A DNA stretch of 64,000 nucleotides from the IMG/VR virus record IMGVR_UViG_3300020161_001040, positions 6,467 to 70,466 of that record; one strand, given 5' to 3'. The stretch comes from a virus. Lineage: Duplodnaviria; Caudoviricetes. Positions 22,567-63,981 of this stretch are shown one piece after another (within the stretch, counting starts at the first letter, position 1; each line of letters begins with the position of its first letter). The translations under genes were made by a program, and so were the position numbers. The notes under the pieces were generated by a model. It worked only from the letters and a program-made list of their open reading frames with translations. It was not told the origin of the DNA and did not search any database.

Positions 22567-22590
22567 CCAAGATCAGCCGATAATGGGGTG

Positions 22591-22614: not shown

Positions 22615-22658
22615 ATCGCCATGTCAGGGTCCAGCCGATAGAGAGGGGTGATACACCG

Positions 22659-22859
22659 ATGTCTGACCAGTTAATTGAGAAGATAGCCAGGACCATCGCG
22701 TTGGTTAACGGGAAAGATCCCGACCAATTGTCTTGGGGAATGGACGAAGAATCCAGTAGACAAATCCAGAGGCCCATCTGGCACTTCTACAAACGTCAAG
22801 CCGAGATGCATATAGAAGTGTACAAGATATTGAAGCTCTATGACTCCGGTAATTCATAA
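22659..22859 (+). CDS. Hypothetical protein
   Basis: GAGGGG RBS. Confidence 0.65.
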   Translation: MSDQLIEKIARTIALVNGKDPDQLSWGMDEESSRQIQRPIWHFYKRQAEMHIEVYKILKLYDSGNS

Positions 22860-23172: not shown

Positions 23173-23198
23173 ATATACCATAGCTCCCATACTGCGAG

Positions 23199-23209
23199 CG
23201 TGGTATGAT
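23199..23209 (+). promoter_or_regulatory. Putative extended -10 promoter (CGTGGTATGAT)
   Basis: Intergenic, upstream of ORF 23276. Confidence 0.55.
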
Positions 23210-23275
23210 CAGCGCTGTCGGTCAATTAGGTTGGCCGATGATCCAAATGATCTCCTAATATGAGGACAAAGCATA

Positions 23276-24106: not shown

Positions 24107-24113
24107 CAACAAC

Positions 24114-24141
24114 AGGGCCGGATGGGGAACCCTCCGGCCCT
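24114..24141 (+). terminator. Terminator-like hairpin
   Basis: AGGGCCGGA..TCCGGCCCT 9-bp stem plus inner GGG/CCC. Confidence 0.55.
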
Positions 24142-24161
24142 AATTGTATTTGGAGCATGAC

Positions 24162-24581
24162 ATGCCGAAGTATACTGTTGCCGAGTGCTTTGACTCCGCT
24201 CAGGGCGCTGGTATTTGGAGAGACGGTTCCGAGATTCTCCGCACGACTTTGATGGATGAGTCGGCTGAGAAACACACCGAGATCGCGAAGTTTGTGGCTA
24301 AGGCATTAGAGGAAGCGGAGGCCAGAAGGACCAGTGGATCAAGCACCACTCAGCGTGCCTCTACCTCTAGCCGCTCAGGGTCTGAAACATTCGACATCGC
24401 GTGGATGAAGGAGCTTCTGGCAGACGCTATGAAGTACCCCAACCTGTCGGGCTTCGAAGAGGATTTTGTCCGGAGCATCAAGGACAAGATCGATCAATAC
24501 GCCGAGCGCACTTTCATTTCTCCGAAACAAATGGAGATCCTCAAGAGAATCGAGGACAAGATTCACGGAGGGGGCCGGTAA
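24162..24581 (+). CDS. Hypothetical protein
   Basis: GGAG RBS; stop overlaps next ATG. Confidence 0.65.
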   Translation: MPKYTVAECFDSAQGAGIWRDGSEILRTTLMDESAEKHTEIAKFVAKALEEAEARRTSGSSTTQRASTSSRSGSETFDIAWMKELLADAMKYPNLSGFEEDFVRSIKDKIDQYAERTFISPKQMEILKRIEDKIHGGGR

Positions 24582-25171
24582 TGGAAGTTATTAATTTCGT
24601 CGTCGATATCGAGACGATGGGTAATGTTTCTGGCTCAGCCATCACCGAAATCGCCGCCGTGTCGTTTGTCGGGAACGACTTCGATCCGGATTGCTGCAAT
24701 CGGTTTAGAGTGGCAATCGATTTAGAGTCATGTTTAAGCGTCGGCTTGGGCGTCACTGAGTCAACCATCAAATGGTGGCTAAATCAGCCCAAGGAAGCCC
24801 AGGCCCTGTATCGCGAAGAGGGAGTCCATATTAAGGAGGCCCTAATTTATCTTCAATCGTGGTGTCGTGGACAGATTGAGGGAGACATCCCATTTGATAA
24901 GAATGATCAACTTGAGAAGCCTTACCGAGTGTGGAGTCACGCTACGTTTGACTTCCCAATGATCGAGGCAGCCTATGCAAAGTGCAGTCTAATCTCTCCG
25001 TGGGCATATTGGTCTGCTAGAGACGTTCGGACAGTCTTGGATTTGGCGTCCGGAGGACCGGGAAAGTATCCGAATATCCCGTTTGTGGGGGTCAAGCATA
25101 GGGCTCTCGACGATGCTATCCATGAGGCCAAGCAGGTTTCCGCCTCCTTAGTCCAACTCGCGAGGGTGTAA
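24581..25171 (+). CDS. DEDDh 3'-5' exonuclease (exoribonuclease/DUF5051-like)
   Basis: VDIETMG, ATFDFPMI, RDVRT, HRALDDA. Confidence 0.85.
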   Translation: MEVINFVVDIETMGNVSGSAITEIAAVSFVGNDFDPDCCNRFRVAIDLESCLSVGLGVTESTIKWWLNQPKEAQALYREEGVHIKEALIYLQSWCRGQIEGDIPFDKNDQLEKPYRVWSHATFDFPMIEAAYAKCSLISPWAYWSARDVRTVLDLASGGPGKYPNIPFVGVKHRALDDAIHEAKQVSASLVQLARV

Positions 25172-47570: not shown

Positions 47571-48607
47571 GATTCGCTACCTCCGCCACCACCATCACTG
47601 TAAGACGGATCTTGAACGTCGCTACCCGTCCTGGTGACTTTAACTCCGGTCGAACTACCTACATTGCTATTAGAATCGTCAAGACCCTGGACTACGAAAG
47701 CATCTCTGATTTCATGATAAGCGACCTCATTCTCTTCAGTCCAACCGTCCCGATACTTTACACCAGTCCCAGCTTCGACGGCAGTTATGATCTCCCCGTT
47801 GGATATTAATGTGGTACCATCCGCGCGATAAAGCTGACCTCCCGCTATGTCAGTAATTCTAAATTTAGTGATATTAGGCTGAGAAGCGGGTTTATTAATC
47901 GAAATTAGACCGGACATTTGACCAGGATCGACGGACACATTTGAATACGCTGGAGCGTTGGTAGTGCCAGATCCGGACATCATCTGAACGGTATCATACT
48001 CTGACCCCGCCAGAACCGCGCCCACTCGGCACCGACCGTACGCAATAGGTATCCCCACTCCCTGCTCATACGTATTTAAATTCCCCTCAAGTAAGAAAGA
48101 ATTATTGCTTCCGTCCTTACTTGAAGTAGATGCCTTAGGTGTAGGAGCTAACATCATAGCGACACCAGATAAAGCCACCGCGAGGCCGAGCAGCGCCATA
48201 GAACCGTATGTTAAACTCAGACCGGCAACCCCCGCCACTGTTCCTGCTCCTAAGAATCCAGGAAGAGCAACGCCCATAGCACCACCCGAAGCCACGATGG
48301 CAACTGCTATGATAGCTACCCCAATTATCGCCTTAAAAACTCCCCCCCTGCTACCGGACCCTTCCGGGACCGGTATGACATGCAATTCTCCCTTACCTAC
48401 TCCGAAGGTAAGTTCGTTGATATCAAGATCTTGTTCAACTGGTCCGTGTTTCACCACTACCCTATAGTAGCCTGTCTCGAAATCGTTTTTGAAATTCTTA
48501 AAATTGACCATCAATAGTCGCACGGCCTGGGTGGGCCGGTTAAAATGCCAATCATAAGGACCGCCATACACGTCCTTAAGATGGCCGTGTAAATGAATCA
48601 TCGTCAT
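47567..48607 (-). CDS. Tail assembly protein I-like with C-terminal extension
   Basis: IHLHGHL..YG, LHVIPVPEGSG, QGVGIPIAYGR..VG; ATGA overlap with K. Confidence 0.85.
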   Translation of the reverse strand: MTMIHLHGHLKDVYGGPYDWHFNRPTQAVRLLMVNFKNFKNDFETGYYRVVVKHGPVEQDLDINELTFGVGKGELHVIPVPEGSGSRGGVFKAIIGVAIIAVAIVASGGAMGVALPGFLGAGTVAGVAGLSLTYGSMALLGLAVALSGVAMMLAPTPKASTSSKDGSNNSFLLEGNLNTYEQGVGIPIAYGRCRVGAVLAGSEYDTVQMMSGSGTTNAPAYSNVSVDPGQMSGLISINKPASQPNITKFRITDIAGGQLYRADGTTLISNGEIITAVEAGTGVKYRDGWTEENEVAYHEIRDAFVVQGLDDSNSNVGSSTGVKVTRTGSDVQDPSYSDGGGGGSES

Positions 48608-49317
48608 GGATTGTACCTCACCCAATGATGTACGTATTTTCTCCAGGGCATCACGTTCTCTCTTCTAGATAGTCTGTTAGATAAATGATGCACTATGGTG
48701 CCTGGATCAATTAAAATACCAGCATGGCTCGGGTATTTACCCACCACTTGCGCTATGAATACGTCTCCAGGTTCTGGAATCGTAACTATCTTAAATCCGG
48801 CTTTGCCAAAATTTTCTAAATATAGGTTCTCACCCCTCAACCACCATTCAAGATCTCTAGGAAAATCCATGAGATCAATATTCCGCTCTAGTTTATACCA
48901 ATCTTTAATTAGAGCGTAACAGTCTCCCATACCATCAGAACCGGACGGTCCGTTTCTAAATGATCTACCAATAATAGGTGGGATATTTACCCCAGGCCCC
49001 CACCATAAAGGATCAGTACATCTATCTTCCGATGTACAAACTAGCCCCCAGGTCTTACCGGTGGAGATTTGTCCCTGGATATCTCTGCCAGTGGGATAAT
49101 GGTTGTTATTAGGATGGGAATGAACTATAGCCGACGATTTCTCCAACATTCCATTGAACACCACTTCATCGGACATTCTGAAGTCAGTCTCTGGAGTTTC
49201 GTGAATATTATCTACGGGAACAAATTCATCATCAATAACAAACCCGCACATTTCTTGCGGATATTTCTGCATCGCGTGTTGGCGAATGGCTTCAACGCAA
49301 GTTCTAGAAAACATCAC
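48604..49317 (-). CDS. Tail assembly protein K-like (JAB/MPN + NlpC/P60)
   Basis: HAMQKYPQEMCG, VHSHP..PTGRD, DCYALIKDWY, HAGI. Confidence 0.9.
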   Translation of the reverse strand: MMFSRTCVEAIRQHAMQKYPQEMCGFVIDDEFVPVDNIHETPETDFRMSDEVVFNGMLEKSSAIVHSHPNNNHYPTGRDIQGQISTGKTWGLVCTSEDRCTDPLWWGPGVNIPPIIGRSFRNGPSGSDGMGDCYALIKDWYKLERNIDLMDFPRDLEWWLRGENLYLENFGKAGFKIVTIPEPGDVFIAQVVGKYPSHAGILIDPGTIVHHLSNRLSRRENVMPWRKYVHHWVRYNP

Positions 49318-50075
49318 GGTCTGAGCCTAGCTGCACTAGGAAAGGCACGAGTTGGAAGTGGATCGGTGGTTCCAAATCTTAGCCTACAATCCGACAGCTT
49401 CTTACCACATCTATCGAATCTTTTGTTGGCCTCGTTGAGAGGTTCACCTCTCTCATTGAAGAATCCGTCTTGATGTCTATAAGGGCATGTAGCTATGCCG
49501 AAATCGAATTGCCCTGTAGAGATATTATAGTGTAAGAAATCCCCCCTATCAGCGTTAAACACCAGATATCTATGGGTGCATACGTCTCTGAGTATTTGAC
49601 GACCGGGAATTAACTTACCCTCCTGGTCCATAGACGCAGCCAACTCCCATTCAATAAAGATTTTGGTATGGGCGACCTTCCTGTCGATTTTGTAAATGTC
49701 TAAAGGAAAATGGGCCGTGGGATCGGGGCTGGTTCCGTCATCTAGGAATCGTCTGAAAGTCCTAATTCTAACAAAAGGAGCCCCCAGCAAATCATTGTAA
49801 TTGTTAACCAATCCACCCATAATTCTGTTAGCATTGGCGATTCTTATCTTAGGAGTAGGTAGCGTTCCTCTACCATTCCATTCGAACCCGTCTACTTCAA
49901 GATCAATGGGGTAATATGGCTGTCCTCCGTACATCAAGGGACCACTCTCTCTGGAAGACTGAGTAAATCTAAATACCTCATTACCTCCGATTCTGGTCAG
50001 ATCTAAATAGTACAGCGCCACATAAGTGTCAGTAGATAACTTGGTACCTTCTTGATCAGCTTGTGTAATACTCAT
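49314..50075 (-). CDS. Minor tail protein L-like
   Basis: YYPI..DGFE, RIRTF..FLD, IEWELA, IPGRQI, C-terminal Cys (CGK..DC). Confidence 0.9.
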   Translation of the reverse strand: MSITQADQEGTKLSTDTYVALYYLDLTRIGGNEVFRFTQSSRESGPLMYGGQPYYPIDLEVDGFEWNGRGTLPTPKIRIANANRIMGGLVNNYNDLLGAPFVRIRTFRRFLDDGTSPDPTAHFPLDIYKIDRKVAHTKIFIEWELAASMDQEGKLIPGRQILRDVCTHRYLVFNADRGDFLHYNISTGQFDFGIATCPYRHQDGFFNERGEPLNEANKRFDRCGKKLSDCRLRFGTTDPLPTRAFPSAARLRP

Positions 50076-50557
50076 GGCGAGAAATCTCTTTCCAGGCTAA
50101 CCTTGAAACTCTCATACATCGGAAAGACTCTTGTTGCATTCCATTTAATTGCCACATACTTTCTGATCACGGATGCACCGGTCGGAGTCCATCTAAATGG
50201 TAGCCCTTGGGTGGCGGAGAAGAAAGAGTCGATCCAATTGGAATCGGTGAAATGTAGACTGTCCCAGGAAAGCTCCCAGTTATCAATTATATTATTGATC
50301 CCGTCTGGAGATCTTTGTTTATATCCGTCTCCAAAATTCGCTACTTTAACCTTTGGGGTGATATCCCTGCTGACGCCACCAGGGGTGGCTTGATAAGGGG
50401 GCCAAAAATACAGATCCCATGCGTTAATAGTACCTCTGGCGTAGTAAAATCCATTACTGGTATTCTTATAAACCGAATTGGAAGGAAGCAGCGACACGCT
50501 AGGAGCGGTCGCGCTCTCACCAATATAGTTTATTCCATCTGGGGTGAAGTTACTCAT
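50072..50557 (-). CDS. Minor tail protein M-like (distal tail) with N-terminal extension
   Basis: NFGDGYKQRSPDGIN, PFRWTP. Confidence 0.88.
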   Translation of the reverse strand: MSNFTPDGINYIGESATAPSVSLLPSNSVYKNTSNGFYYARGTINAWDLYFWPPYQATPGGVSRDITPKVKVANFGDGYKQRSPDGINNIIDNWELSWDSLHFTDSNWIDSFFSATQGLPFRWTPTGASVIRKYVAIKWNATRVFPMYESFKVSLERDFSP

Positions 50558-50565: not shown

Positions 50566-53500
50566 TCACTGGTTGAACATTCCGCCGCTTCTCATTTGGC
50601 GGCGAGTTTCATCTGCGTACATGGCCCTAAACTGATCAGCAACCGCCTTAGCCACTTGATTACCAAGATCAGCATTCTGCTCAGAAGTACCAGAACTACC
50701 AGCCACATTAACAGTGACGTTGACGGTGATGGCAGGACCGCCCTGGGATTCCATCATAGCAGAAGGCGTACCCCTGCTAGAAGAGGCTATTTCCTGCGGA
50801 GTGTTACCCATCCAATCCTGCAACATCGAGCGCCCGTCGAGAACCACGGTCCCGGCGTTAATCATCAAGCTGCTGGTCGTAAGTTGGGACCCGATGGGAG
50901 ATTCCATCGGAGAGCCTCTGAACGTATCGCTCATTGCTTCAACGCCGAGTCTGCCATTCGGTAGTCTACGCAGCGGCATGATTGCCTCTGGTCCCGCTTC
51001 CCCCATTAAACCATACCCGTTCCTCATAGGGAATAAGGTAGGCTGGGTTACTAGACCACCCGTCGCGTAGGGGGTGACTCGCCCACCACTAAACACGCCG
51101 CCCATAGCATATTTTTTCTCACCGCCCGCCATAGGCGCACCACCGGAAAATACTCCGCCATCTCCGAATGTCATTCCCATAGATTCAAGGATTAGCTTAA
51201 AGCCCATCATAAAGACTTTCTTTATGATGATCTCTTCGATCACCTTAGCTAAGAAGTCCGTGATAAAGGACCTAGCCATTTCCTTGAACGAACCCTTGCC
51301 GGTGGTCAGCAACTCAGCAAAGTGGCGCGAAGTGATTCTAGCGAAGCCAGACATGGCTTCACCGGCCAGACCAATTTCCGTGGAGAGATTAACAAACGAC
51401 TCTTTCATATTGAGCGCTTGGCCTAGTTGATCATAAGCGATTTCAAGTTCCCCAACTTGGGTTCTGGCTCCATCCAATAACTCGTTGTGTCTAATGATGG
51501 CCTCATCAGTAGAGGAAATCTCCGACCTCAACCTCTCCGCTTCGCTACCTGACCCCCGATTGGTGTCCTCCAACCCAGTTAGTTGGGTACGGCGCGCTTC
51601 ATTTTCCGCAGAGAATTGGTTTACTCTGCGAGTACCGTCGTTTATGAAATTGTTGATTGACCCAACGCGCTCGTCACGTTCATTGTTATTTTGGGTTCTA
51701 TCTCTGCGAATCCCAGACAAAGCATTAATGCGCTCAGCCTCACGATCAAATCCAAATGTTCTCAGCAGATCACTCTCGTTAGAGATCTGGGAAGTTTCTA
51801 CTCTGTTGTTTAACTCCCTCATTCTCCTATTACGAGGGTTGTTCGGGTTATTAGACATGCTATCAAAACCGGAATTAGCGGCATCTAATCTAGCCTGCCT
51901 TACTCCGATCTGTGTTCTGAGAGCGGCAGCCTGAACGCCTCCACCCTGGCCGGAAGCCTCTAGGCGAGCTAAGCCACTGCCTAAATCATTCACAGCCTGC
52001 CTATAACGATTGATTTCGTCTATGAAAGCGGACAGCGATTTCAGATCCTCGTCTACTCCAGTTAGACCAGCGGCACGGGAAGCACTTTCCAGGGCGGAGT
52101 CTCTGCGGTCTATTCTACGGATCGCGTTGGCCATCAACTCCAGGTTTACAATCTGCTTGCGCTGAGACTCACTTAGATTTTCTCCGCCCACTAATACGCT
52201 TTCGTAATATTCTTCGGCAGCTTGAGTGGAGTTAGTCCAACCAGTAACGGTGCGCTGGAGACGGGCGATCATGTTATTGAAAGAGTTGGCGGCACCATCA
52301 GTAGCACCAGTGGCGTTTCTAATCGCACCATCTCTAATCTGCTGGGTGGAAGCATTGACCTCAGCAATGATTTGTTCATTACTTAGATCTTTTCTGGTAA
52401 TTCTAAGGAACCTATCGGCTTGCCAGCGAAACGCTTTTTCTTGGCTCGCTCCGCCTTTACCTTTGCTGGTCGATAACGCTTTTTCAAATTCTTTCCGAGC
52501 TTCCTCCAATCTCGACTGTTGCTGTAACTGGCTCCGTTCGGCATCGGTCACTGGTCTGGCAGTTAGACCGGCCCTTGACTGAGCTAGCAAAGCAGAAGCC
52601 GGGCCAGCGGTTCCTGCAGTGGCGAGTGCCGACAGTCCGTTTCTGATGACTCCGTTCACCTCGCTGGTAAATTTAGCGCCAGAAAAACTACTTAGTAAGC
52701 TTTGTAGATCGCTAAGAGCAGAGAACGCTCTACCCGTCATACCGGCTACACCACGGAGGCTGGAAGTGATGCCGTCATTCTGGAGAATATGCTGGGCAGC
52801 AGCCTCGCCCGCCATCTTGCGAGCTTCGGCCATCAGTTTTTCCAAGCTCTCAACTTGTCTGACAACAGGAGCGCCTTGCAGCAGAGCTTCTGCCTTCCTC
52901 TCTTCGAGTCTCACATTAGAGGCTAAAGCGATATTTTGAGTCTCTAATTCTTGGGTGCGCTGCGTAGTTAGATCATCTCTATACTTACCTATTCCGCGAT
53001 TCATAACACTAAGTCCACGCTGTTGCGCGAACTGGGCAACATCGCGATCAATACCTTCTGGAACGGCTGCGATAGTCGTGCGTTTTCTGACGTCATCGAT
53101 GGCGCGAGAAACTTCAAGATCTTTTTGTTTGGCACTAGTTACCCCAGCCAAAGCTTTAGCTAATTCTCCGTTATCACGGATTCCATTTTGACGAAGTAAT
53201 TTCTCGGCATCTAGCTGGGCATTCATTTGATCAACCGCCTCAGTGCCGAGACGATAAGCGGACGCTAATCTTTCAGTATCTCTAATTTCTTGATCAGCGT
53301 TGCTTAGAGCGGTAACATACGGCTGCATTCTTCTGGAGTATCGTTCTAGATTGGACGCCTTTTCAGCTTCAATCATGGCTTTAGTAGCGGCTTCAAGTGT
53401 ATCCTGAGAACCAGGACTTTCCGAATCAACATTGCGATTACCGATTACATCTTTAAAAGCTTTCATTCCAGCCTCTGACGCAGCGTTTTTATCTGCTAGA

Positions 53501-56500
53501 TTTAGGATCTGGGCCGGATCTCCAGTCAGGGACGTTATAGACGTCTCGACGGATCTACGAGATGCTTGCTGCGACGTTCTGGCTCGTTCTTCTAGAGCTA
53601 GAGTTTCGTTTTTAATATATTCGGCTCTTTGATTTTCGATAAGGAAAGATATAATCCGAAGCTCTCCCTCTCTCTTAATTAAGTCGTTCAACTTCTTTTG
53701 AGCGTCTTCACGGTCTTGGGTGGCTCTAGTTATATCTTCCTGACTACCGCTCTGGTTAACTAGGTCATTTTGGTTTTGATCAGCAGTGATTAAGGCTCCT
53801 CTGGCGTATTCAACGGCTCTTCTAGCGGAGTCTAACAACCCAAGCTGAACCTGATCTCCAATGATTCTAAAATCTAGGCCGAGACTTCTGCGGATTTCGG
53901 AAAGCTCATACAGCTTACGAGATAACTCATCAAGTCCTTCCGTAGCAAACTTGCGAGTCTCCTTATTAGCGTTTTCAATAGCATCTCTATAATCGAAATT
54001 CACGACATTGGCCGCATCTGCAGCTTGCTTAGCTAATGCACCGGTTCTGTCGGCTAGTTGTTGACTGGTAGTACCTGCATCTCTTTCAGCATTCACTTGC
54101 GCGATTAAATCACGACTTTCTGTTTGGTCAACTATGTTAAATCTTCTGGCTTCCTTGATAGCAGAAATTCTAGAGTCTCTGAGATTATTTCTTCTTTGTT
54201 GTTCTACAAGAGCAGCCTTTTTGGTTTCTGCCTCAACCCCATTCTGAGTTTCCTTATTCAGGGTAGCCTGGGCCTGGGCAACGTCTAAAATGATATCCCT
54301 ATTTCTCAACAGCAACAGAGCCATATCACTGTAAGCGTCAGGATTGGCTCTTGAATTCTCTGCGTTCTTTAGTCTTTCAAGTAACACAAAATACTCTTGC
54401 ATCTGGGGCATCAATTCCCTAATGCGAGCTTCTGGTACCCCTGTACGGCGAACCATGCCCCCTATCTGTCGGTTATCTAGATTCGTTTGATTTACAAGGC
54501 TGAGAGAAGAAGCGGCGGATTCTCCGTGTTTAGCACGAATTTCGGAAAGAATTTGTTGGCGTCTGGCTGCCGCATTTAACATCTGGTCCATGCTTACGTC
54601 AGTGCCTCTTAAGGCCCGAGTCATTTCATCTCGTAAATTTCTCCCGGTATCTACAGTTCCGCCAAGTACGCCCGACACGCCTCCGGATTCCACTCTGGTA
54701 GTGGTTCCAAGATATTGATTCACTGCCTGTCTGGCAGTGTCGGCAGCCTTAGCGGAGTCCTGTAGCTGCTTATTGATGTCGTTGATGGCGTTAGTCATAT
54801 TCATTGAAGTGTAGTTGCCTTGGAGCAACCGTTCGTTGGCTTGCCTTAAAGCGTCTATCCGTCCAGTAGCGGCGTCCAAATCTTTCTGAACTTGGGTAGT
54901 ACGATCTTTAGTTAAAATATACCAAGCAGCGAATGCGGTCCCTGCGGCTGCTATCCACCCCACAACGGGAACACCAGCCAGGAACATGGCGGCGCGACCT
55001 AAAAGACCTATACCGGCGGCTGCCTTGGCTGCAGCTAGTGAAATCATAGTGGCTCCAGCTGCCTGAGTAGTCATCACTACAGCTAGACCGGCCAGAGCTA
55101 TAGCCGCGCCTTCACTTTGAAGCTTAAATTGATTGGCCGGATCAGTAACCCTCTGGTACACAGTACCAGCATTATTGATCTCGTCAGTTACTCTAGACAT
55201 TTCCTCTCGTAGCTGCATCAGTTCTTGGCGAACCTGATCCAATTGTCTTCTAGGAATTTCAGCCCTTAGGGCATTACGAGTGCCTCGCATATTCTCGTTG
55301 AAGGATGGGGTAGCATTATTAACTTGATTATTCAGAGAAGCTTCGGATCTCTCTAACTGCTTGCGTCTATCTTCCAATCTATTTAAACGAATTTCCATCT
55401 CGTTTAATGGACGATTGGCTGCTCCAGAGATGGAAGCTGACCCCGTATTGGGATCAAGTGCTGCTTTCATGGTCATAATCGACGCCGACGCTTTGTCAGC
55501 CGATGTAGAAATGCCCATGAAGTATTCGGGAATACCAGCTAATATGCCCGATAATAACACTGCAGCTATAGTTCCACCGCGTAGAGCCATCGCTACGCCG
55601 GTCAACAGAGCGGCTACACCAGACATAGCCAGAAGAGCGCCAAAAGCTAAGACGAGTCTGGATACTAGCTCAACATTTCTTTCAATAACCCCGGCGAACT
55701 TGTCGAATCCTTTAACAAAATCATTGATAAGTTCTCTGATGGGGCCACCGTTCATCACGGATTCAAGGGTATCAATGATTCTCTTGAACCCACTCTCTAG
55801 ACCAATCTTGAACAAATCCTGAGAGAATACAGTGAAAGTATTCTTAAGTCTGTTAAATTCAGCTAGGATTTTATTAGACATCAAGGCAGCAGCGTCAGCC
55901 ATATCGGTGCGCATTAATCTAGCGACTACGGGCAGTACCTGACTGGCCGTTACTTCGCCAGCCTTCATAGCTTCTTCGAACTGTTGCATCCGTTCGGTAG
56001 TGATTCTGGTAGTCTCATCGATTTCACCGCGAGCGATGAAGAAGGCTCTGGCGAATGTATTGGCGACACCGGGAAGTCTATCGCCTAATTGCTGCCTTAA
56101 TTCTTCCGCCATTACCTTGCCCTTGTTCATCATCTGCTCAAAGGCTCTGATGATGCCACGGGTGTTCTCAGAATCCATACCGAGAGCCTGAGAAGCGACG
56201 ATGGTGGACTCAAAGATGCTACGAAGCTGGTCCTGGCTATAACCCATAGCTTGGGCAGCGGCAGCCAATCTAGCGTAAGGCTGAACTAGGTCACCATACG
56301 AGACACCAAGCTGATCGGCGGTTGTCTTCAGATACTCCATTTCACGATTAGCGCCTTGGATTGTCGGGAAAGTCGCCCTTAGGGCAGCTTCCATTCTATC
56401 CATGGCGATTGAGGTCTGAGTGACAGCCGTGACTATAGTTACAAATCCGGTAGCGTACAACACAGCTTGCAGAGTATCGAGAGAATCGATCACTCTACTC

Positions 56501-59500
56501 ATGCTTCTAGCTTGCTCTAGGAACGCCCTGCTATTATTCTTCTGAGCCTCAAGGAACGAAGCCTTCCTTTGCTCAGTCTTGGCTATCTCGGTCTGTAAGC
56601 TCAGTAAGAGATTTTGTTGAGTAACAATAGACTGATTAACTCTATCGATTTGATCTTTGTACTTATCATCTAGAACTCCAATACCTCCTTCAGATCGGTC
56701 TTTAGCAATGTTCTGAATTTCTTTAAGCTTAGTCTTCTGTAGTTCAATACTGTCAGCTACTACGGAAGAAACATCTTTGAGCTTAGATAGGGAAGACTCA
56801 TAGGAATCGATGCTTTGCTTGGTTGATGCGAACTCAGTACGAACCTGAGCCATCACCAATTTAGCCGTGGAGGAAACGTCTCTTAATCCAGAGTTGATCT
56901 GACGAAATTGATCCGCTCCTATAATGTTGAACATTGAAGCTTGCTGGGGCTGACGGCTTCCCATAGACGTGATAGTCTTGTTGATAGACTCAAGTTGAGT
57001 CTCAGCCTTGTCTAGGGTCCCAAGGGCTGAGGTGAAGGACCGCTCGACACGAGAATCAGCAGCATCACCAAAGGCTCTTCTATACTCCACCCACCCGTCT
57101 CTGAATTTGCCGATTGCCTCAGAATAAGCGTCTCTGAACGAATTAAGGCGACCAATATGGTCAGCCGTTGGCATAGCCGTACCAATTTCTTTGTTAACTT
57201 CACGAATAGCCGAGCGCAGTTCGTAATAACTACGAATTATAGCATCAGCGCTGGGGGGCAGAGCGCCGCCGCCCGAACCATCAGCGTCTGGAGGAGTGGG
57301 GGGAAGACCGCCACCGCCACCGGTTCCTCCACCGCCGCCACCGATTCCTCTGCCACCGCCACCGCCACCGCCACCGCCATTGACCAAGCGATCTGATTGT
57401 TTGATCAGAGAAGAAATTTGGGACAGAGCCCCTCTCATACGATTAGCTGATTCTTTAGTGCTCTTTCCGAGAGAATCGCCCTTTTGCTCTACATATTCCA
57501 AATTGCGACCTAAAGCTTCGGCCATGGGGCCGTAAGCCGCTGCTACGAACTGTTTGAAATCTTCTAATTTTCTACGAGTATTTTCGGTAACTGTTCCAGT
57601 TAAATTTAACTCGGCCTTAATCTCAGTAGCTAGTGTTTTAGAAGCATTAGCGATTTTCTGAAAAATGCCAAACTTCGCGTCCTCAGTCACAACGGCACCA
57701 GTGGATTGCGTGAGACGCTCAATTAGTCCGGCGCGAAGTTTCTGAATGGATGATATATCTGAATTAGGCAGCAAGCTGTTGAGATCGGTAGCAATGGAGC
57801 GGATACGATCATCCCGTGTAGCAGTGCCGACCTGACTTAATTTCGTATAGAACTCCATCGCGGGCTTGAATACATTTATGGCCGTCTGAGTATCTCGAAT
57901 GGCCCGGTCGACTAGAGCCACCATCCCTTGGTCAGCTTTTTGATCATTAGCTAACAATTCTTTGGTCTTGGATAATTTCTCAGCGTTCTGATTAAGCTGC
58001 TCAATAACTTTAGCTTGTCTTTCAGGATTTTGTAAAGCCTCATCCGCAGTCTTCCTCAAGTCGACTAAACGCTCTTGAGTGAGAGATGAATTCTTGAGTC
58101 TGGTTTCCAATTCCCCGGATAGCGTGTTGGCCTTCCCAGCTTCAGTTGTACGGTTGTTGGCGTATCGATTCATTTCCAGAATTTCCGCCCGTTCTAGCGC
58201 CTGTCTCATGCCTGGGCTTATATTGGCGCTAGCCTTAGTCTTTGCGTCGGTAAGAACTGCTATAATGTCACGAGTGGTCTTCGCCATGTTTAACATATCG
58301 GCGGCGCGAGCTTCCGAAATCTTCGCGTCCTGAGCCAGCCTCTTAACTGACTCTGCCATCAAAGCGTCGTATACCTTAGAGTTGACTCCTACGTCATAAC
58401 CGGCTTCATGGGCTAAATCAGCGTCGTATCCAACTCCATATCGCTGAGCCACGGCACCTAGTGCATTAGGAACTCCGGGATTTAGGAATCTGGCTAATTC
58501 AAGGGTATCAATGGTATTAACTTTACCGAGCATCTCATAATCTTCTTTAGAGATGCCTCGTCCCACATAGAAGCTAGCTGCCTCTTTCATTTTGCTAATA
58601 TCGAACTTGTCGATGTTATGACCAACCAGTACCAATTCTCCGGTAGCTTCCTTCATTCCCTTAATGAAATTAATAAATTTATTGATAGCCTTCATCTCAT
58701 CAAAAGTATCAGGACCACCCTGTAATACCGCTTCGCCCATCTTTTTAGCGCCGGAAGTCAAGGGGGTAGAATCGTCATCTTCCCCCATAAACTTGCGCAA
58801 GCCACCAAGAAAATCTCTAAGATCCTCGACATTGCGCTTCACGTAAACGTTCATAGACTGCGCGTCTTGACCGCCTACGACTCTCTGAGCGAATATCTGT
58901 AGTATGCGGTTAACTTGAGAACCATCGTCCCTAGGCTTGAAAGCAGTCTCGATATCAAATACGACGCGAGGACGTAAATCTCTCTGTAGTTTGTTAACAG
59001 CTGTTTGATCGACCATATTAGACGTCGATTTCCTAAAATCAGCAATATCCGTGTTCATTTTTACAATAATTTGCTCAATCCGATTCAACTCCGCACGAGC
59101 ATTGCCAAGTGCTTCCTTGCTGAATAGGGCTTTGTCCCCATCCATAAATCCTAGCTTATCCATCACATTGAGAGTGGATACGAAAGTGGCAGCAGATTTG
59201 CGGGCCGATTCGAATTTGACGGGCATAACTTCAAGATCGCGAGACATCTGAGCAAATCTAATGTCTCTGTCAGATCCGGTGAGTCCTGACAACTCCGATT
59301 TGAATTTATTTAATGTTCTGGTTGATTTCTCAGAACTACTGGCAAGAGCGGTAAACATCTTGTCGTTGTAGCCAAGTGCGGAAGTAAAATTATTTACGCT
59401 TACTTTATTATCTTTCATCAACCTAAAGAAGTCTTCAAATTCAGACGACAAACCCGCTATACTAGTCTTAGTTTGGTTAGTAGCCGTCAGAATATCTAAA

Positions 59501-59796
59501 ACTCTACCACGAAGACCAGCGCTCATGTCTTTCGATAAACTGGCGAAAGACTTCCTTTGTTCAATTTCGATCTCTTCTACTCTGCTCAGAAATCCTACTA
59601 ACTTTTCAATCTCCCTAATCTTTCCGGTGATATTACCAGCAATAGATCTGGAATAATTAGCAAGATCCTTCGTATTTTCAGTAGCCTGTCTCAGTGGTCC
59701 CTGAATTTCCTTAGCAGTATTGATTAGCTTATATACATCACCGAGATCACCGACCTTGGCGTTAATTTCAATAGTGATATCAGCGAGATCTGTCAT
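50566..59796 (-). CDS. Tape measure protein (3076 aa)
   Basis: KGKVMAEELRQQLGDRLPG tape-measure domain; YATGG..LMGEAGPEAIMPL C-terminus; lies between chaperones and M. Confidence 0.95.
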   Translation of the reverse strand: MTDLADITIEINAKVGDLGDVYKLINTAKEIQGPLRQATENTKDLANYSRSIAGNITGKIREIEKLVGFLSRVEEIEIEQRKSFASLSKDMSAGLRGRVLDILTATNQTKTSIAGLSSEFEDFFRLMKDNKVSVNNFTSALGYNDKMFTALASSSEKSTRTLNKFKSELSGLTGSDRDIRFAQMSRDLEVMPVKFESARKSAATFVSTLNVMDKLGFMDGDKALFSKEALGNARAELNRIEQIIVKMNTDIADFRKSTSNMVDQTAVNKLQRDLRPRVVFDIETAFKPRDDGSQVNRILQIFAQRVVGGQDAQSMNVYVKRNVEDLRDFLGGLRKFMGEDDDSTPLTSGAKKMGEAVLQGGPDTFDEMKAINKFINFIKGMKEATGELVLVGHNIDKFDISKMKEAASFYVGRGISKEDYEMLGKVNTIDTLELARFLNPGVPNALGAVAQRYGVGYDADLAHEAGYDVGVNSKVYDALMAESVKRLAQDAKISEARAADMLNMAKTTRDIIAVLTDAKTKASANISPGMRQALERAEILEMNRYANNRTTEAGKANTLSGELETRLKNSSLTQERLVDLRKTADEALQNPERQAKVIEQLNQNAEKLSKTKELLANDQKADQGMVALVDRAIRDTQTAINVFKPAMEFYTKLSQVGTATRDDRIRSIATDLNSLLPNSDISSIQKLRAGLIERLTQSTGAVVTEDAKFGIFQKIANASKTLATEIKAELNLTGTVTENTRRKLEDFKQFVAAAYGPMAEALGRNLEYVEQKGDSLGKSTKESANRMRGALSQISSLIKQSDRLVNGGGGGGGGGRGIGGGGGGTGGGGGLPPTPPDADGSGGGALPPSADAIIRSYYELRSAIREVNKEIGTAMPTADHIGRLNSFRDAYSEAIGKFRDGWVEYRRAFGDAADSRVERSFTSALGTLDKAETQLESINKTITSMGSRQPQQASMFNIIGADQFRQINSGLRDVSSTAKLVMAQVRTEFASTKQSIDSYESSLSKLKDVSSVVADSIELQKTKLKEIQNIAKDRSEGGIGVLDDKYKDQIDRVNQSIVTQQNLLLSLQTEIAKTEQRKASFLEAQKNNSRAFLEQARSMSRVIDSLDTLQAVLYATGFVTIVTAVTQTSIAMDRMEAALRATFPTIQGANREMEYLKTTADQLGVSYGDLVQPYARLAAAAQAMGYSQDQLRSIFESTIVASQALGMDSENTRGIIRAFEQMMNKGKVMAEELRQQLGDRLPGVANTFARAFFIARGEIDETTRITTERMQQFEEAMKAGEVTASQVLPVVARLMRTDMADAAALMSNKILAEFNRLKNTFTVFSQDLFKIGLESGFKRIIDTLESVMNGGPIRELINDFVKGFDKFAGVIERNVELVSRLVLAFGALLAMSGVAALLTGVAMALRGGTIAAVLLSGILAGIPEYFMGISTSADKASASIMTMKAALDPNTGSASISGAANRPLNEMEIRLNRLEDRRKQLERSEASLNNQVNNATPSFNENMRGTRNALRAEIPRRQLDQVRQELMQLREEMSRVTDEINNAGTVYQRVTDPANQFKLQSEGAAIALAGLAVVMTTQAAGATMISLAAAKAAAGIGLLGRAAMFLAGVPVVGWIAAAGTAFAAWYILTKDRTTQVQKDLDAATGRIDALRQANERLLQGNYTSMNMTNAINDINKQLQDSAKAADTARQAVNQYLGTTTRVESGGVSGVLGGTVDTGRNLRDEMTRALRGTDVSMDQMLNAAARRQQILSEIRAKHGESAASSLSLVNQTNLDNRQIGGMVRRTGVPEARIRELMPQMQEYFVLLERLKNAENSRANPDAYSDMALLLLRNRDIILDVAQAQATLNKETQNGVEAETKKAALVEQQRRNNLRDSRISAIKEARRFNIVDQTESRDLIAQVNAERDAGTTSQQLADRTGALAKQAADAANVVNFDYRDAIENANKETRKFATEGLDELSRKLYELSEIRRSLGLDFRIIGDQVQLGLLDSARRAVEYARGALITADQNQNDLVNQSGSQEDITRATQDREDAQKKLNDLIKREGELRIISFLIENQRAEYIKNETLALEERARTSQQASRRSVETSITSLTGDPAQILNLADKNAASEAGMKAFKDVIGNRNVDSESPGSQDTLEAATKAMIEAEKASNLERYSRRMQPYVTALSNADQEIRDTERLASAYRLGTEAVDQMNAQLDAEKLLRQNGIRDNGELAKALAGVTSAKQKDLEVSRAIDDVRKRTTIAAVPEGIDRDVAQFAQQRGLSVMNRGIGKYRDDLTTQRTQELETQNIALASNVRLEERKAEALLQGAPVVRQVESLEKLMAEARKMAGEAAAQHILQNDGITSSLRGVAGMTGRAFSALSDLQSLLSSFSGAKFTSEVNGVIRNGLSALATAGTAGPASALLAQSRAGLTARPVTDAERSQLQQQSRLEEARKEFEKALSTSKGKGGASQEKAFRWQADRFLRITRKDLSNEQIIAEVNASTQQIRDGAIRNATGATDGAANSFNNMIARLQRTVTGWTNSTQAAEEYYESVLVGGENLSESQRKQIVNLELMANAIRRIDRRDSALESASRAAGLTGVDEDLKSLSAFIDEINRYRQAVNDLGSGLARLEASGQGGGVQAAALRTQIGVRQARLDAANSGFDSMSNNPNNPRNRRMRELNNRVETSQISNESDLLRTFGFDREAERINALSGIRRDRTQNNNERDERVGSINNFINDGTRRVNQFSAENEARRTQLTGLEDTNRGSGSEAERLRSEISSTDEAIIRHNELLDGARTQVGELEIAYDQLGQALNMKESFVNLSTEIGLAGEAMSGFARITSRHFAELLTTGKGSFKEMARSFITDFLAKVIEEIIIKKVFMMGFKLILESMGMTFGDGGVFSGGAPMAGGEKKYAMGGVFSGGRVTPYATGGLVTQPTLFPMRNGYGLMGEAGPEAIMPLRRLPNGRLGVEAMSDTFRGSPMESPIGSQLTTSSLMINAGTVVLDGRSMLQDWMGNTPQEIASSSRGTPSAMMESQGGPAITVNVTVNVAGSSGTSEQNADLGNQVAKAVADQFRAMYADETRRQMRSGGMFNQ
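58350..58975 (-). other. DEDDh 3'-5' exonuclease domain embedded in tape measure protein (aa about 275-480)
   Basis: VVFDIET (D281,E283), LVGHNIDKFD (D399), IDTLELAR, AHEAGYD (H463,D468). Confidence 0.85.
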
Positions 59797-60550
59797 TTTT
59801 TGTTCGCCTCGTGATAGGCGTTTAGATAGAGGTTATCTATCGCCTTGAGGATGTCTACCTCATAAGACGATAACACAGCCCCCGCATGACGAGAATAAGA
59901 GGCAAAGTCATCGAGTGAGAACCTATTAGGTCCCCACCCGTTACTGCCTCGCCACTGGTTTAGATCGAAGAAGGTACCGATGAATCCAGCGGCCTGATCG
60001 CCTATCTCGGGTTCTCGGTCATCGTCGTTTACCCTTCTTCCCTTAGCGACAAGCTCCTGGATGAATGGGAGCTTGTCGCCGTCCTTCGAATGGAGGAGCT
60101 TAAATCTCCACTTACACCATTCGTATACTTCGTCTTCTATTCCTACTTGATAAAATTTCCAGTCTCATTGATCTCCTCATCAAGCTGCTCGCGAATCCAG
60201 GCGAGGCGAGAATCGGAAAGAATCTTCACGGCATTGGCATAGCTGCACTCAAGCATCTTGCCGTCCAGGGTGATGTTCTTCCAGGACTTAATGCAGCGAG
60301 CGATGAGTTCAATCGTCTCAGCTTCGATCTCCTCAGAGGTGATCTTACCGCGACCGCCGCGCTGCGCGAGACGACGATTCTGGACGGCGCGCTGGTGCTT
60401 CTGGTACTCGTCCGAGTACTTACCAATAATAGTAATCGTGATCTTCTCACCATCATCAGTGATGAGAGGGACGCGCTTCACGGGATGGAGAATTTCGACT
60501 TCTCTACCCTGATTGGAACCGGACGCTACGTCTAGGCTAGAAAGATCCAC
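59793..60550 (-). CDS. Tail assembly chaperone GT (programmed -1 frameshift product)
   Basis: -1 frame open for 119 codons after slip site (..FFDLNQWRGSNGWGP..YEVDILKAIDNLYL), TGA overlaps TMP ATG. Confidence 0.8.
60143..60550 (-). CDS. Tail assembly chaperone G
   Basis: ITIIGKYS, IKSWKNI..DG..LECS..NA..WIREQL; upstream of TMP. Confidence 0.85.
   Translation of the reverse strand: MDLSSLDVASGSNQGREVEILHPVKRVPLITDDGEKITITIIGKYSDEYQKHQRAVQNRRLAQRGGRGKITSEEIEAETIELIARCIKSWKNITLDGKMLECSYANAVKILSDSRLAWIREQLDEEINETGNFIK
60152..60158 (-). other. -1 ribosomal slippery heptamer A AAT TTT
   Basis: X XXY YYZ in GGA AAT TTT, three codons before the G stop. Confidence 0.8.
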
Positions 60551-60860: not shown

Positions 60861-62126
60861 CTAACCAGCCGGAAGGGGAGGTCGGACCATTTGCCCCTCC
60901 ATACTTACTATAACCGCGCCCGTGAGTCTGTGCAAGGCTGCCATCATTATCCCAAGATTATACGCGAATTCATTGTGACAGGTTTGATTAAAATAGTCAC
61001 CTTTTAAATACATACACCCACCTTTACACAGTTGCACTACTGGGCAACTCATGCACTCTTCTCTGTAGGTCAGATGGGTGGAAGTGGTTAACTTAATATC
61101 GTCAAAAGCGTCTAAATGACCGATTTTGTGAGAACCTTTCGCCCCGGTGTTCTGGCAAGTCATCACGTTACCTTGCAAATCCACGGCAATGTGATCAGGT
61201 CTATCCATTCCGCACTTTTGCCAAAGTGCATTCACCGGTCTACGCTGAAATAACGAATGAATGAAATCATGGACCTTATAATCTAATCCATCTATGGTGG
61301 ATAACGGCTCGTTCGACTCCATAGAATAAAATACAGAACTAGTTAGCTCTTTCAGCTTGTCGGAACTAAACCGACCAGATCCGTTCAGTGTATCCGCGTC
61401 GTAAACATTAACCACTCCTTCGATATTGATCCTAACGGGATGATCGAATTTCTGAGCAAACCAATCGCGCAGGGCTATTAAATCGAATGAATCTGAGCTT
61501 AATACTGAGTTAATATGATGAGTATCAGATTTAGCTAGAAGTCTGCTCCAAATCTTAAGAAGGCCATGATCATCAAGTGGATCGGGACCTCTCAAGTGTT
61601 GCCCTGGGCCGTCATGACTGATTGCTATTGAGATGTTGTTTTGTTCAATGAAATCCACCACTGAATCATCAAGTAAAGATCCATTGGTGACCATTGAGAT
61701 TCTAGATTCTGGCCATATTTCTTTGATCTTCGGCACCAGGAACTTAATCTTATTTAAATACAGAAGAGGCTCGCCGCCCCACAACTCAACTCTACTGGGG
61801 GCCGCATCAAACCATTGGCTGACCTTGTTGATGAAATTCTTTGCATCTGAGATACTGGACGCAGTAGCTTGTTTAATGAAAGAAGACTGTGAGCAATAGC
61901 TGCAGCTGTAATTGCATCCCAGACCCAACTGAATCTTTAGATTCTTAACGGATCTGGATTTGGGATTAGGAGTTAGCTCAGAGGTGGGTGACGCCGCTCT
62001 AAATTCCTTGATCTTCTCGTCGGACAGGATATCGCTGCCATCAGAATTTTTCAGGGTATTCAAATGTGGATCGTACACCAGGGTAAAACTATTACCCTCT
62101 CTGGAATTCATATTCAGCTTGAACAT
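60861..62126 (-). CDS. Radical SAM/SPASM domain protein
   Basis: CNYSCSYC, ELWGGEP, MVTNG, ISHDG; SPASM cysteines KCG..TCQ..CMSC..LCKGGC..TCH. Confidence 0.93.
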   Translation of the reverse strand: MFKLNMNSREGNSFTLVYDPHLNTLKNSDGSDILSDEKIKEFRAASPTSELTPNPKSRSVKNLKIQLGLGCNYSCSYCSQSSFIKQATASSISDAKNFINKVSQWFDAAPSRVELWGGEPLLYLNKIKFLVPKIKEIWPESRISMVTNGSLLDDSVVDFIEQNNISIAISHDGPGQHLRGPDPLDDHGLLKIWSRLLAKSDTHHINSVLSSDSFDLIALRDWFAQKFDHPVRINIEGVVNVYDADTLNGSGRFSSDKLKELTSSVFYSMESNEPLSTIDGLDYKVHDFIHSLFQRRPVNALWQKCGMDRPDHIAVDLQGNVMTCQNTGAKGSHKIGHLDAFDDIKLTTSTHLTYREECMSCPVVQLCKGGCMYLKGDYFNQTCHNEFAYNLGIMMAALHRLTGAVIVSMEGQMVRPPLPAG

Positions 62127-62127
62127 T

Positions 62128-62844
62128 TCAGACCTTAGCGATCTTGATCGAGGAATAATTGCTCCAGTGTCTGAATCCTACTTTGATTTCAGCTTCATCA
62201 CCGACGCTCATGCCAAGAGGTTGAAAAGTAAAAGTCCCTTGACCATTTTCCAGCTTGACCTTTCTGGGAACGAAGCCGTTGTCAGTTTTCAGATAAACGT
62301 GACAAGAAGCGGGGCCGTCCACAGTTACAGTAAACACCCCGCCAGAATCGCTGACCGTCAGCGGACCGGATACGTCCATATCAAAATGATAGGCTTTACG
62401 ACCGCTGGTAAATTGCCTGTTGCGAATATTCACCGTCATTGAAGGATTGAAGACCGCGACCGCCTCGGGGTGAAGGTTCACAATGTAAAATGCCTCGCTA
62501 AAACTAGAATCTCCCGGTCTGATAAAGATATGCAGCCATTTGGTGCCTGCGGGCAAAAACGGAATGGCGTCCTTAAATTCCTGCTTAGTGGTGGCAGTCA
62601 TGGCATGAGCATTGTATAAGGGGGGTATGCTATTTACCGACGCCGCATTCTCTGGCAAATACGACAGAACCCATCTATCGTAGTCCCCAGCTTCGCTGTG
62701 ATTAATAAGTTGATCCCACGTGATTTGGCTAGCGATGTGGTTAGCTACCGCTGTCAAGGTCTTGGCGTCTTCACTGAATGTTATAGACACGTCGGACGGA
62801 GCGTCTAGGGCGTCTTTGTACACTAAAAAATATGAATTTCTCAC
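62128..62844 (-). CDS. Hypothetical protein with beta-rich (Ig-like) C-terminus, partner of the radical SAM enzyme
   Basis: GTGA overlap with oxygenase, 1 nt from rSAM start. Confidence 0.7.
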   Translation of the reverse strand: MRNSYFLVYKDALDAPSDVSITFSEDAKTLTAVANHIASQITWDQLINHSEAGDYDRWVLSYLPENAASVNSIPPLYNAHAMTATTKQEFKDAIPFLPAGTKWLHIFIRPGDSSFSEAFYIVNLHPEAVAVFNPSMTVNIRNRQFTSGRKAYHFDMDVSGPLTVSDSGGVFTVTVDGPASCHVYLKTDNGFVPRKVKLENGQGTFTFQPLGMSVGDEAEIKVGFRHWSNYSSIKIAKV

Positions 62845-63554
62845 ATCTGGCTCCTGATCTTCACGATGTCATCAACCGATTTATAGACCTCTCCTGAGGC
62901 TTCTCCCTCAAGGGCTCCGGTAAATCTGATATTAGATATCAACGCTCTTTTATGCGACCCTTGCTTAAACATAGGCATAGTAGAATGCGGAGCATTACCT
63001 GGGAAGATGACTAATACACCAGAGGTATTCCCTATGGGAAAAATTGGCGTCTCCCGCCTAGCGAATTGACCACTCATTAACGCCTTAGGATTGTGGAAAG
63101 TGAGTTGACCGGCCAGGGGATGGTCACCTTCTTCTACGACCACTCTAGGATAATAGGTAGCAACTAGTTGGTTACCATGGTGAGCATGATACATGCTGAA
63201 ATCTTGATGATCTTCTACATTACCCCACATGTTGATTTTAAATTGGGTATATTCGTGAGGGTCTAAATTATACGCTTCTTTAAGATATTTAATTGCCATT
63301 ATACATTTAATTTGCATCAATTCTTCAACGGCTCTGCTCTTGTAATTCAGTAAAATATTATTAGGGATGGCGTGCTTAAAGCCGGACTGATAGCGAGCCA
63401 TACTCTTTTCTGCGTAATCTTCGGCAATCTCTACTAATTCGTTGTTCCAAGAATCGGGAGCGTCGATTGGTACTCTCATAACATACGTGGGCCAAAGGGC
63501 AAGCATGTTATGATCACCAACGTTAACGTCATAATCCATTTTATGTTGCTCCAT
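62841..63554 (-). CDS. Putative 2OG-Fe(II) oxygenase (TIGR02466-like)
   Basis: LWPTYV, NMWGN, HAHHGNQLVATYY, GQLTFHNP, LVIFPG..PHS. Confidence 0.8.
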   Translation of the reverse strand: MEQHKMDYDVNVGDHNMLALWPTYVMRVPIDAPDSWNNELVEIAEDYAEKSMARYQSGFKHAIPNNILLNYKSRAVEELMQIKCIMAIKYLKEAYNLDPHEYTQFKINMWGNVEDHQDFSMYHAHHGNQLVATYYPRVVVEEGDHPLAGQLTFHNPKALMSGQFARRETPIFPIGNTSGVLVIFPGNAPHSTMPMFKQGSHKRALISNIRFTGALEGEASGEVYKSVDDIVKIRSQM

Positions 63555-63580
63555 GTTGATTGGGCAGAGACTTCATAATA

Positions 63581-63814
63581 TTACGCGGTATCCGTAGAAC
63601 AAGCACAAGCACAATTACAGGCGTTGCTCTTATGTAAAGTTACAGTATCCGTGGTATAAGAGAGAGACATTAACTTAATGGGCTGAGTACCATCTCCTGT
63701 AGTATCTACATTTACGCTCAGCACCCTCGATGGACGATTGATAATTCTAGACCACGGGATATTGCCCGAAGAATCTATGACTAAGGTACCTGAAATGTAT
63801 ACGGCCATAGACAT
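63581..63814 (-). CDS. Cys-rich small protein B (C-terminal ACNCACACSTDTA)
   Basis: ORF track plus manual check; ATG overlaps upstream TGA. Confidence 0.8.
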   Translation of the reverse strand: MSMAVYISGTLVIDSSGNIPWSRIINRPSRVLSVNVDTTGDGTQPIKLMSLSYTTDTVTLHKSNACNCACACSTDTA

Positions 63815-63981
63815 CAATCCCCTGAACTGTCAGTGGAACAGGCACAAACGCAGTTGCAATCAGTGCTTATTATGTAAGTCAAATTCCCTGTAGAGTAATT
63901 GTAAACTATATCATTAAATCTAGCCCAATCTATTTGAGCCGATAAGTTAAATACGGTGGTGCCAGATACAATAATCGTCAT
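63814..63981 (-). CDS. Cys-rich small protein A (55 aa, C-terminal DCNCVCACSTDSSGD; not in ORF track)
   Basis: Manual translation MTIIVSGTTVFNLSAQIDWARFNDIVYNYSTGNLTYIISTDCNCVCACSTDSSGD; AGGGGG RBS; paralog of B. Confidence 0.85.
   Translation of the reverse strand: MTIIVSGTTVFNLSAQIDWARFNDIVYNYSTGNLTYIISTDCNCVCACSTDSSGD

Follow-up and report, generated by a model that had tools for sequence, protein, structure and literature searches.

A predicted DEDDh exonuclease module within the tape measure protein of an uncultured long-tailed phage

Tape measure proteins (TMPs) equipped with an enzymatic domain are already known from long-tailed phages, and several of them, e.g., those of mycobacteriophage TM4 and T5 (pb2), carry muralytic domains of the lytic transglycosylase or peptidase type. 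A nucleic-acid enzyme has been characterized in the Thermus phage P23-45, where gp96 features an N-terminal RNA polymerase that forms part of the full-length TMP in the virion (Chaban et al. 2024; PMC10770324). The authors of that study propose that the polymerase acts on the phage DNA passing the TMP pore at entry; an exonuclease is not mentioned in their paper (PMC10770324). Here, a stretch of 64,000 nucleotides of phage DNA is analyzed, referred to as the window, which corresponds to positions 6,467 to 70,466 of the IMG/VR record IMGVR_UViG_3300020161_001040 (70.5 kb, ~65% complete; an uncultured phage represented by a metagenomic contig only). The TMP encoded in the window, P0001, harbors in its N-terminal part a DEDDh exonuclease-type domain with a complete set of catalytic residues. 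The explanation that accounts best for the whole of the evidence, and to which an even chance is given, is a TMP-borne DEDDh 3′–5′ exonuclease module that acts when the DNA enters and whose most likely substrate is the incoming genome end. An earlier note on this DNA, made from the sequence without database searches, had stated that no TMP-borne DnaQ-like nuclease was known to be described, and full-text literature searches likewise found no paper describing a TMP-borne DEDDh/DnaQ-like nuclease. Although enzyme-bearing TMPs as such are familiar, a nuclease cargo is therefore new to the literature searched, and its anatomy, as read from sequence comparison and structural modeling, is well supported. 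With TMP cargo so far comprising wall-degrading domains and one studied RNA polymerase, a nuclease would add a new enzyme class.

P23-45 gp96 is the closest precedent for this arrangement and the sole one for an N-terminal nucleic-acid enzyme staying on a full-length virion TMP; it is an analogue, not a fellow member. Both are giant TMPs of long-tailed phages with a nucleic-acid enzyme, here a predicted one, at the N-terminal side. They differ in the nature of the enzyme, since gp96 carries a two-barrel RNA polymerase with DxDxD/DFDGD motifs whereas the cargo of P0001 is a predicted DEDDh exonuclease of ~215 residues. A P23-45-type RNA polymerase was considered for P0001 and ruled out: a DxDxD motif is found neither in P0001 nor in its relatives P0003 and P0017, no RNA polymerase family matches, and the ~545 residues from the nuclease to the TMP core are too few. 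With muralytic TMPs, P0001 shares an enzyme domain that rides in the TMP and would be delivered on TMP expulsion. Its substrate, however, would be nucleic acid and not peptidoglycan. The nuclease resides in the head-proximal N-terminal part, which would leave last, whereas muralytic domains reside in the distal part, which meets the cell wall first.

P0001 is a genuine TMP of a lambda-like long-tailed phage. Its gene constitutes a single uninterrupted open frame of 3076 amino acids on the minus strand (window 50566-59796), and it occupies the place typical of a TMP gene, with a G/GT frameshift chaperone preceding it and the distal tail genes following. The Pfam TMP_3 core domain is recognized at residues 1124-1327 (55816-56427, minus strand) with 99.2 bits against a cut-off of 41 (E 3e-28), and eleven TMP families of the PHROG collection match, together spanning residues ~1065-3075. 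Toward the C-terminus, a weak motif of the lambda gpH C-terminal type occurs at residues 2812-2850 (51247-51363, minus strand); the Pfam model Tape_meas_lam_C reaches 21.2 bits here, below its cut-off of 23, and PHROG 24 and PHROG 1716 also match the C-terminal part. A Kyte–Doolittle scan reveals two clusters of hydrophobic, membrane-type segments at residues ~1375-1429 and ~1563-1629 (54910-55665, minus strand), a pattern that recurs in P0003 and P0017.

The nuclease domain occupies residues ~275-490 of P0001 (58327-58974, minus strand), as delimited by profile and structure matches. All motifs typical of the DEDDh superfamily are found in frame: Exo I, FDIET, at residues 280-284 (58945-58959), which supplies D281 and E283; Exo II, GHNIDKFD, at residues 392-399 (58600-58623), which supplies D399; the motif IDTLELAR at residues 429-436 (58489-58512); and Exo III, AHEAGYD, at residues 462-468 (58393-58413), which supplies H463 and D468 and is of the “h” type. 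The features that define membership, namely D-x-E in Exo I, N-x2-3-(F/Y)-D in Exo II, and H-x4-D in Exo III, are thus all present. The earlier note had placed the domain at 58350-58975, a span equivalent to residues ~275-482. Its structural account stands: the four motifs lie in the TMP frame with the five residues at the positions claimed, and a complete DEDDh set, far more than chance would produce, is contained inside a true TMP. Delivery of an active nuclease by the virion at time zero, for which the note named disarming of defenses, trimming of the entering DNA ends, and attack on host nucleic acids as possible roles, is a proposal. The fold, which that note had proposed to examine by AlphaFold, agrees as well, with a model of residues 241-520 matching DnaQ-type exonucleases (Z 16-17.4).

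Profile searches lead to the same superfamily. PHROG 192, annotated as “DNA polymerase exonuclease subunit”, matches residues 243-621 with E 4.6e-17, and the PolC-exonuclease and DnaQ models of NCBIfam match residues 241-520 with E 4.5e-11 to 2.5e-9, these latter matches being partial and far under the equivalog cut-offs. A phmmer comparison with sequences of the PDB is weak (E ~0.1), yet it pairs HNIDKFD with HNAAFD of Escherichia coli epsilon and HEAGYD with HGALLD of the same protein (H162, D167). The DxE of Exo I falls in line with that of five RNase_T proteins. As the source of the inserted domain, an intein or homing element was ruled out, since no Hint or endonuclease family matches and DnaQ-type enzymes align with the domain over its whole length.

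The AlphaFold2 model of residues 241-520 has a predicted local distance difference test score (pLDDT) of 77 and a predicted TM-score (pTM) of 0.75. The top Foldseek matches to this model (E 2e-6, TMt 0.6-0.72) are RNase T, a TREX1 homologue, epsilon, the DinG exonuclease domain, ExoI, and ExoX. In VIA-align comparisons, high Z values were obtained with the PolC exonuclease domain (9qpc, 17.4), RNase T (2is3, 16.8), a Cas-associated DnaQ domain (8h18, 16.7), and DNA polymerase III epsilon (16.1; epsilon structures 1j53 and 2gui), the matches with Z 16-17.4 having a root-mean-square deviation of 2.7-3.5 over 154-185 residues. Cap18 of a cyclic-oligonucleotide-based anti-phage signaling system (CBASS; 7t2s) aligns with Z 14.4, TREX1 is also among the structural neighbors, and the viral neighbors are stand-alone phage DnaQ/DEDDh proteins. 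According to the model, residues ~275-490 adopt a DnaQ/RNase T-type DEDDh fold, i.e., an RNase H-like alpha/beta arrangement. Motifs and modeled fold together favor the prediction that the domain is a metal-dependent 3′–5′ exonuclease. It resembles known DnaQ-like DEDDh enzymes (epsilon, PolC, RNase T, 8h18, ExoI, ExoX, and TREX1) in fold, with Z 14-17.4, and in its Exo I-III motifs. It differs from them in being embedded in a virion structural protein instead of being joined to a polymerase, a helicase, or a Cas protein, in having additional residues of variable number inserted between Exo I and Exo II, and in scoring below the Pfam RNase_T cut-off.

Relatives of the domain are rare. An exhaustive phmmer search with the nuclease domain over 1.84 billion representatives retrieved only two close relatives, P0002 and P0003, both of which are TMPs. 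P0002 is a full-length orthologue, 98% identical to P0001. P0003 is 45-47% identical in the nuclease domain and 41% identical over its full 3105 residues. The other 13 matches had E values of 1e-6 to 1e-3, and the eight of them that were scanned are all ordinary RNase_T or PolC proteins. A third lineage, represented by P0017 (3711 residues; L010 9843-20978), was found only through a search with the TMP core, in which it is 45% identical to P0001 while the nuclease shows just 26% identity. P0017 additionally contains an SLT transglycosylase at residues 2400-2489, so that a nucleic-acid enzyme and a cell-wall enzyme reside in one TMP. Its gene order is canonical, with tail terminator, tube, two chaperone open reading frames (ORFs), and TMP, followed by distal tail genes that are different; the module has therefore been retained with tail tips of two architectures.

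The shared motifs of the three lineages read (F/Y)DIE(T/N) for Exo I, (H/Q)N...FD for Exo II, DTL.LAR, and AH.A.YD for Exo III, with N, F, and D of Exo II invariant. Forty-six of 280 domain columns are invariant over the three lineages, and these include all five catalytic residues, for which the chance expectation is ~1e-4. Between the window and the closely related contig L002, the nuclease domain has accumulated 6 synonymous and 3 non-synonymous changes; the resulting ratio of non-synonymous to synonymous proportions (pN/pS) of 0.14 is based on small numbers.

Broader searches returned no further TMP of this kind. Among 50,697 GenBank phage records, neither nucleotide nor tblastn searches found a match, so that no cultured relative was obtained, and a profile search of proteins of 577-2000 residues gave one exo-helicase and nothing TMP-like. 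Two scans of IMG/VR returned just stand-alone exonucleases, exo-helicase fusions, and one unexplained ORF of 2473 residues. This ORF (L019 6692-14110; IMGVR_UViG_3300045988_161125) has a DEDDh-like domain in the middle of the protein, at residues ~1012-1177 (PHROG 403, E 2e-8), and matches no other PHROG family. It may represent another giant virion protein with a nuclease cargo.

As the window is a metagenomic viral contig, an exonuclease gene wrongly fused to a TMP gene by assembly or annotation was considered as an explanation of the architecture. Four contigs from samples of JGI and ENA carry lineage 1, lineage 2 is represented by three, a Logan assembly and an NCBI assembly among them, and four Logan contigs carry lineage 3, the contigs of each lineage coming from different samples or assemblies where a source is listed. 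Independent assembly of every lineage from several samples makes a chimera very unlikely. The architecture recurs in three lineages that have diverged from one another and are each covered by 3-4 contigs, and the frame is uninterrupted, with TMP-like sequence flanking the domain on both sides; this explanation is left with a negligible probability and is effectively refuted.

The first ~850 residues of P0001 are best explained as a cargo module, which is followed by the usual tape with TMP_3 core, membrane segments, and lambda-type C-terminus. The plan of this N-terminal region is common to the three lineages: a conserved start, helices, the nuclease, further helices, and a Gly/Pro linker near residues 800-850. 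The segment ahead of the nuclease (residues 1-274; 58975-59796, minus strand), delimited by conservation and a low-confidence model, opens with MTDL..I.IEI.A and continues into long helices. This start is conserved in the three lineages and resembles the N-termini of TMPs without a nuclease, from which it follows that the nuclease has been inserted within a TMP and not prefixed to one. For the segment after the nuclease (residues 491-805; 57382-58326, minus strand), only helices are predicted, with low confidence, and the match to PHROG 192 extends past the nuclease into it, to residue 621. A model of residues 1-860 is poor (pLDDT 48); helices flank the nuclease in it, and neither packing nor extra domains can be read from it reliably. 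In the comparison of the window with L002, the proportion of synonymous differences (pS) in residues 491-805 is 0.33, as against 0.01-0.05 elsewhere in the gene, with a pN/pS of 0.10. Judged from these substitutions, the segment looks like a recombination patch from another lineage that is under strong purifying selection.

The module ends with a linker rich in glycine and proline, which was delimited by alignment at residues 806-848 (57253-57381, minus strand) and consists of G-runs and LPPTPPDADGSGGGALPP. No other stretch of the N-terminal half is as well conserved, the linker being 85% identical to that of P0003 and 63% to that of P0017. Among 27 TMP_3 relatives, a linker at that place occurs only in the nuclease-bearing lineages, the other 23 being without it. 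The linker may serve as a hinge or as a processing site. In the latter case, the nuclease might not be a virion enzyme at all: the module could be cut at the linker during tail assembly, or be made separately, and act late in the producing cell, in recombination or in the processing of ends before packaging. The striking conservation of residues 806-848 and their restriction to nuclease-bearing TMPs would suit this explanation. TMPs are, moreover, often processed, as exemplified by the conversion of lambda gpH to H*. Fragmentation of a TMP is also noted in the study that describes the 80alpha neck (PMC11661146). However, the very N-terminus is canonical for a TMP and conserved, which suggests that a role at the neck has been retained, and the N-terminal enzyme of P23-45 remains on the full-length TMP in virions (PMC10770324). 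Nor is it evident why a nuclease acting late inside the cell should need a place within a TMP, where three lineages nevertheless keep it. An enzyme released in the producing cell is therefore considered decidedly unlikely, and the explanation preferred here retains the nuclease on the TMP, with the phage probably delivering a ready-made nuclease at infection.

How such a delivery could proceed can be proposed from the behavior of other TMPs. About three copies of the TMP would fill the tail tube with their N-termini at the neck, beside the DNA end. In the neck of phage 80alpha, the DNA end is closed off by the tail completion protein, to which three TMP N-termini bind (PMC11661146). Upon infection, the TMP would be expelled with its C-terminus first, ahead of the DNA, making a path for it, and the nuclease module would exit last, directly before the genome. 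The domain would then refold, either in the cytoplasm or already at the membrane channel, and work as a metal-dependent 3′–5′ exonuclease. Its most likely substrate would be the end of the entering phage genome, which is favored because only about three copies are expected and these would be sited beside the leading DNA end. Trimming or recessing of the 3′-strand could ready the end for annealing or circularization; alternatively, the trimmed end might be a poor substrate for host end-dependent nucleases. For the same considerations of number and place, action on the entering DNA end is favored over a bulk attack on host nucleic acids.

The proximity of TMP and DNA might instead be exploited without catalysis. 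In a structural or tethering role, the domain would bind the 3′-end of the packaged genome or serve in the upper tail as a landmark for assembly or termination; the DNA would be linked to the TMP, so that ejection of the TMP pulls the DNA in, and hydrolysis would be incidental or suppressed. The siphovirus TMP N-terminus does adjoin the capped DNA end (PMC11661146), the module is conserved along with its helical flanks and linker, and binding of a 3′-end alone would also preserve the metal-ligand residues. The general-base histidine of Exo III, however, serves chemistry and not binding, and is nevertheless invariant down to 26% identity. In 80alpha, furthermore, it is the tail completion protein and not the TMP that caps the DNA end (PMC11661146), and the domain of P0001 begins only after a long N-terminal segment, 275 residues into the protein. 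Tethering of the genome, in any of these forms, thus appears improbable, and an active exonuclease that works on the genome end at entry continues to be the preferred explanation.

Several points nevertheless weigh against this explanation. A folded globule of ~215 residues is about as wide as the lumen of a siphovirus tail (~4 nm), so that the three copies would have to be staggered, partly unfolded, or metastable; the same is assumed for other TMP enzymes, and the constraint holds for every model that places the nuclease in the virion. The start of the domain at 275 residues from the N-terminus places it near the DNA end, not at the end. The genome termini, on which the proposed enzyme would act, are not read from the record with its completeness of ~65%. 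The Gly/Pro linker could be a cleavage site at which the module is removed before or after assembly. At the level of the domain itself, Pfam PF00929 (RNase_T) gives no match on P0001 and only 17.8 bits on P0003, against a cut-off of 24, and the insertion between Exo I and Exo II varies in length (~50-80 residues) and is of low confidence in the model. Since the PF00929 cut-off is not reached and the NCBIfam matches are partial while motifs and fold are present, the TMP nuclease is, on the strength of motifs and predicted fold, a divergent member of the DEDDh superfamily that lies outside every curated family.

The main rival explanation concerns the target. As an anti-defense or host-attack cargo, the ejected nuclease would destroy 3′-ended nucleic acids of host immunity, or nibble host DNA at the entry site, ahead of all phage gene expression; retron multicopy single-stranded DNA (msDNA), guide RNAs or DNAs, linear oligonucleotide signals, and primers are candidate targets. 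The evidence from motifs, profiles, fold, and conservation is the same for this cargo as for action on the genome end, and activity prior to transcription is possible only with a pre-made enzyme. Moreover, DEDDh enzymes from an immunity context are among the structural neighbors, namely 8h18 (Z 16.7), Cap18 (7t2s, Z 14.4), and TREX1. The packaged anti-restriction proteins Dar of P1 and IPI of T4 provide a general precedent for anti-defense cargo. In contrast, some three molecules tethered to a membrane-inserted TMP would be ill suited to targets that are abundant or free to diffuse. DEDDh enzymes also need a free 3′-end, and cyclic nucleotide signals are thus no substrates. No defense or anti-defense family matched the domain in the family searches, among which PADLOC was not included. 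An immune or other host target is on balance unlikely, and the entering genome end is preferred as the substrate.

A more specific version of the preferred explanation can be put forward tentatively, although it is rather doubtful. The ~850-residue module as a whole would be a dedicated genome-end processor, kept in the upper tail beside the leading DNA end and set free in the cell shortly before it, that recesses the 3′-strand and thereby decides between annealing or circularization and escape from RecBCD-type destruction of the DNA. Should this hold, a virion enzyme that processes the incoming end would constitute a new and general step of phage DNA entry. Proteins carried in the virion that accompany the leading DNA end and determine what becomes of it in the cell are known, as exemplified by gp2 of T4 and N of Mu. 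These protect or bridge ends and are, unlike the predicted TMP nuclease, not DEDDh nucleases, so that they are likened to it by role alone. In a wider sense, a nuclease cargo would be in the cell before phage gene expression and exactly where the genome enters. It would bear on the survival of incoming linear DNA in the face of end-dependent host nucleases, on the preparation of genome ends for circularization, and on pre-made phage counter-measures against nucleic-acid-based immunity. The nuclease domain is small and well defined, and its catalytic mutants are obvious.

The genes around the TMP gene are arranged as in lambda-like phages. Upstream lies a gpG-like tail assembly chaperone (60143-60550, minus strand; PHROG 313, E 2e-15), the last codons of which contain a slippery heptamer, A AAT TTT (60158-60152), that opens into the -1 frame. 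The corresponding “T” extension of 123 codons was delimited by its stop-to-stop frame and by reading of the sequence (59793-60164, minus strand), and its stop codon overlaps the start codon of the TMP gene as ATGA. Read from the sequence, this chaperone pair is the classical G/GT frameshift arrangement. Downstream, likewise on the minus strand, follow the distal tail genes for gpM-like (50072-50557), gpL-like (49314-50075), gpK-like (48604-49317), gpI-like (47567-48625), and gpJ-like (41151-47570) proteins. These genes (41151-50557) were named by matches to PHROGs 14, 18, 30, 32, and 31 and by Pfam names on syntenic loci.

A replication module is encoded on the plus strand (window 10809-27072) and comprises a Prim-Pol/D5 primase-helicase, a class II ribonucleotide reductase, a Y-family (IMS) translesion polymerase, ThyX, a UvrD-like helicase, and PolA. 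The Y-family polymerase is an uncommon gene among phages. No paralogue of the TMP nuclease is present in the 70-kb record. A function of the nuclease as proofreading subunit of the replicase was considered and ruled out, because PolA carries its own 3′–5′ exonuclease domain and the nuclease lies in a late structural gene.

Directly upstream of the chaperone, the window contains a block (60861-63981) with a radical SAM enzyme, a protein of 238 residues, a 2-oxoglutarate (2OG)-Fe(II) oxygenase, and small ORFs. This block is syntenic in lineages 1 and 2 (L002 5816-8936; L003 1482-4896). Lineage 3 is without it, and there the tube gene sits ahead of the chaperones.

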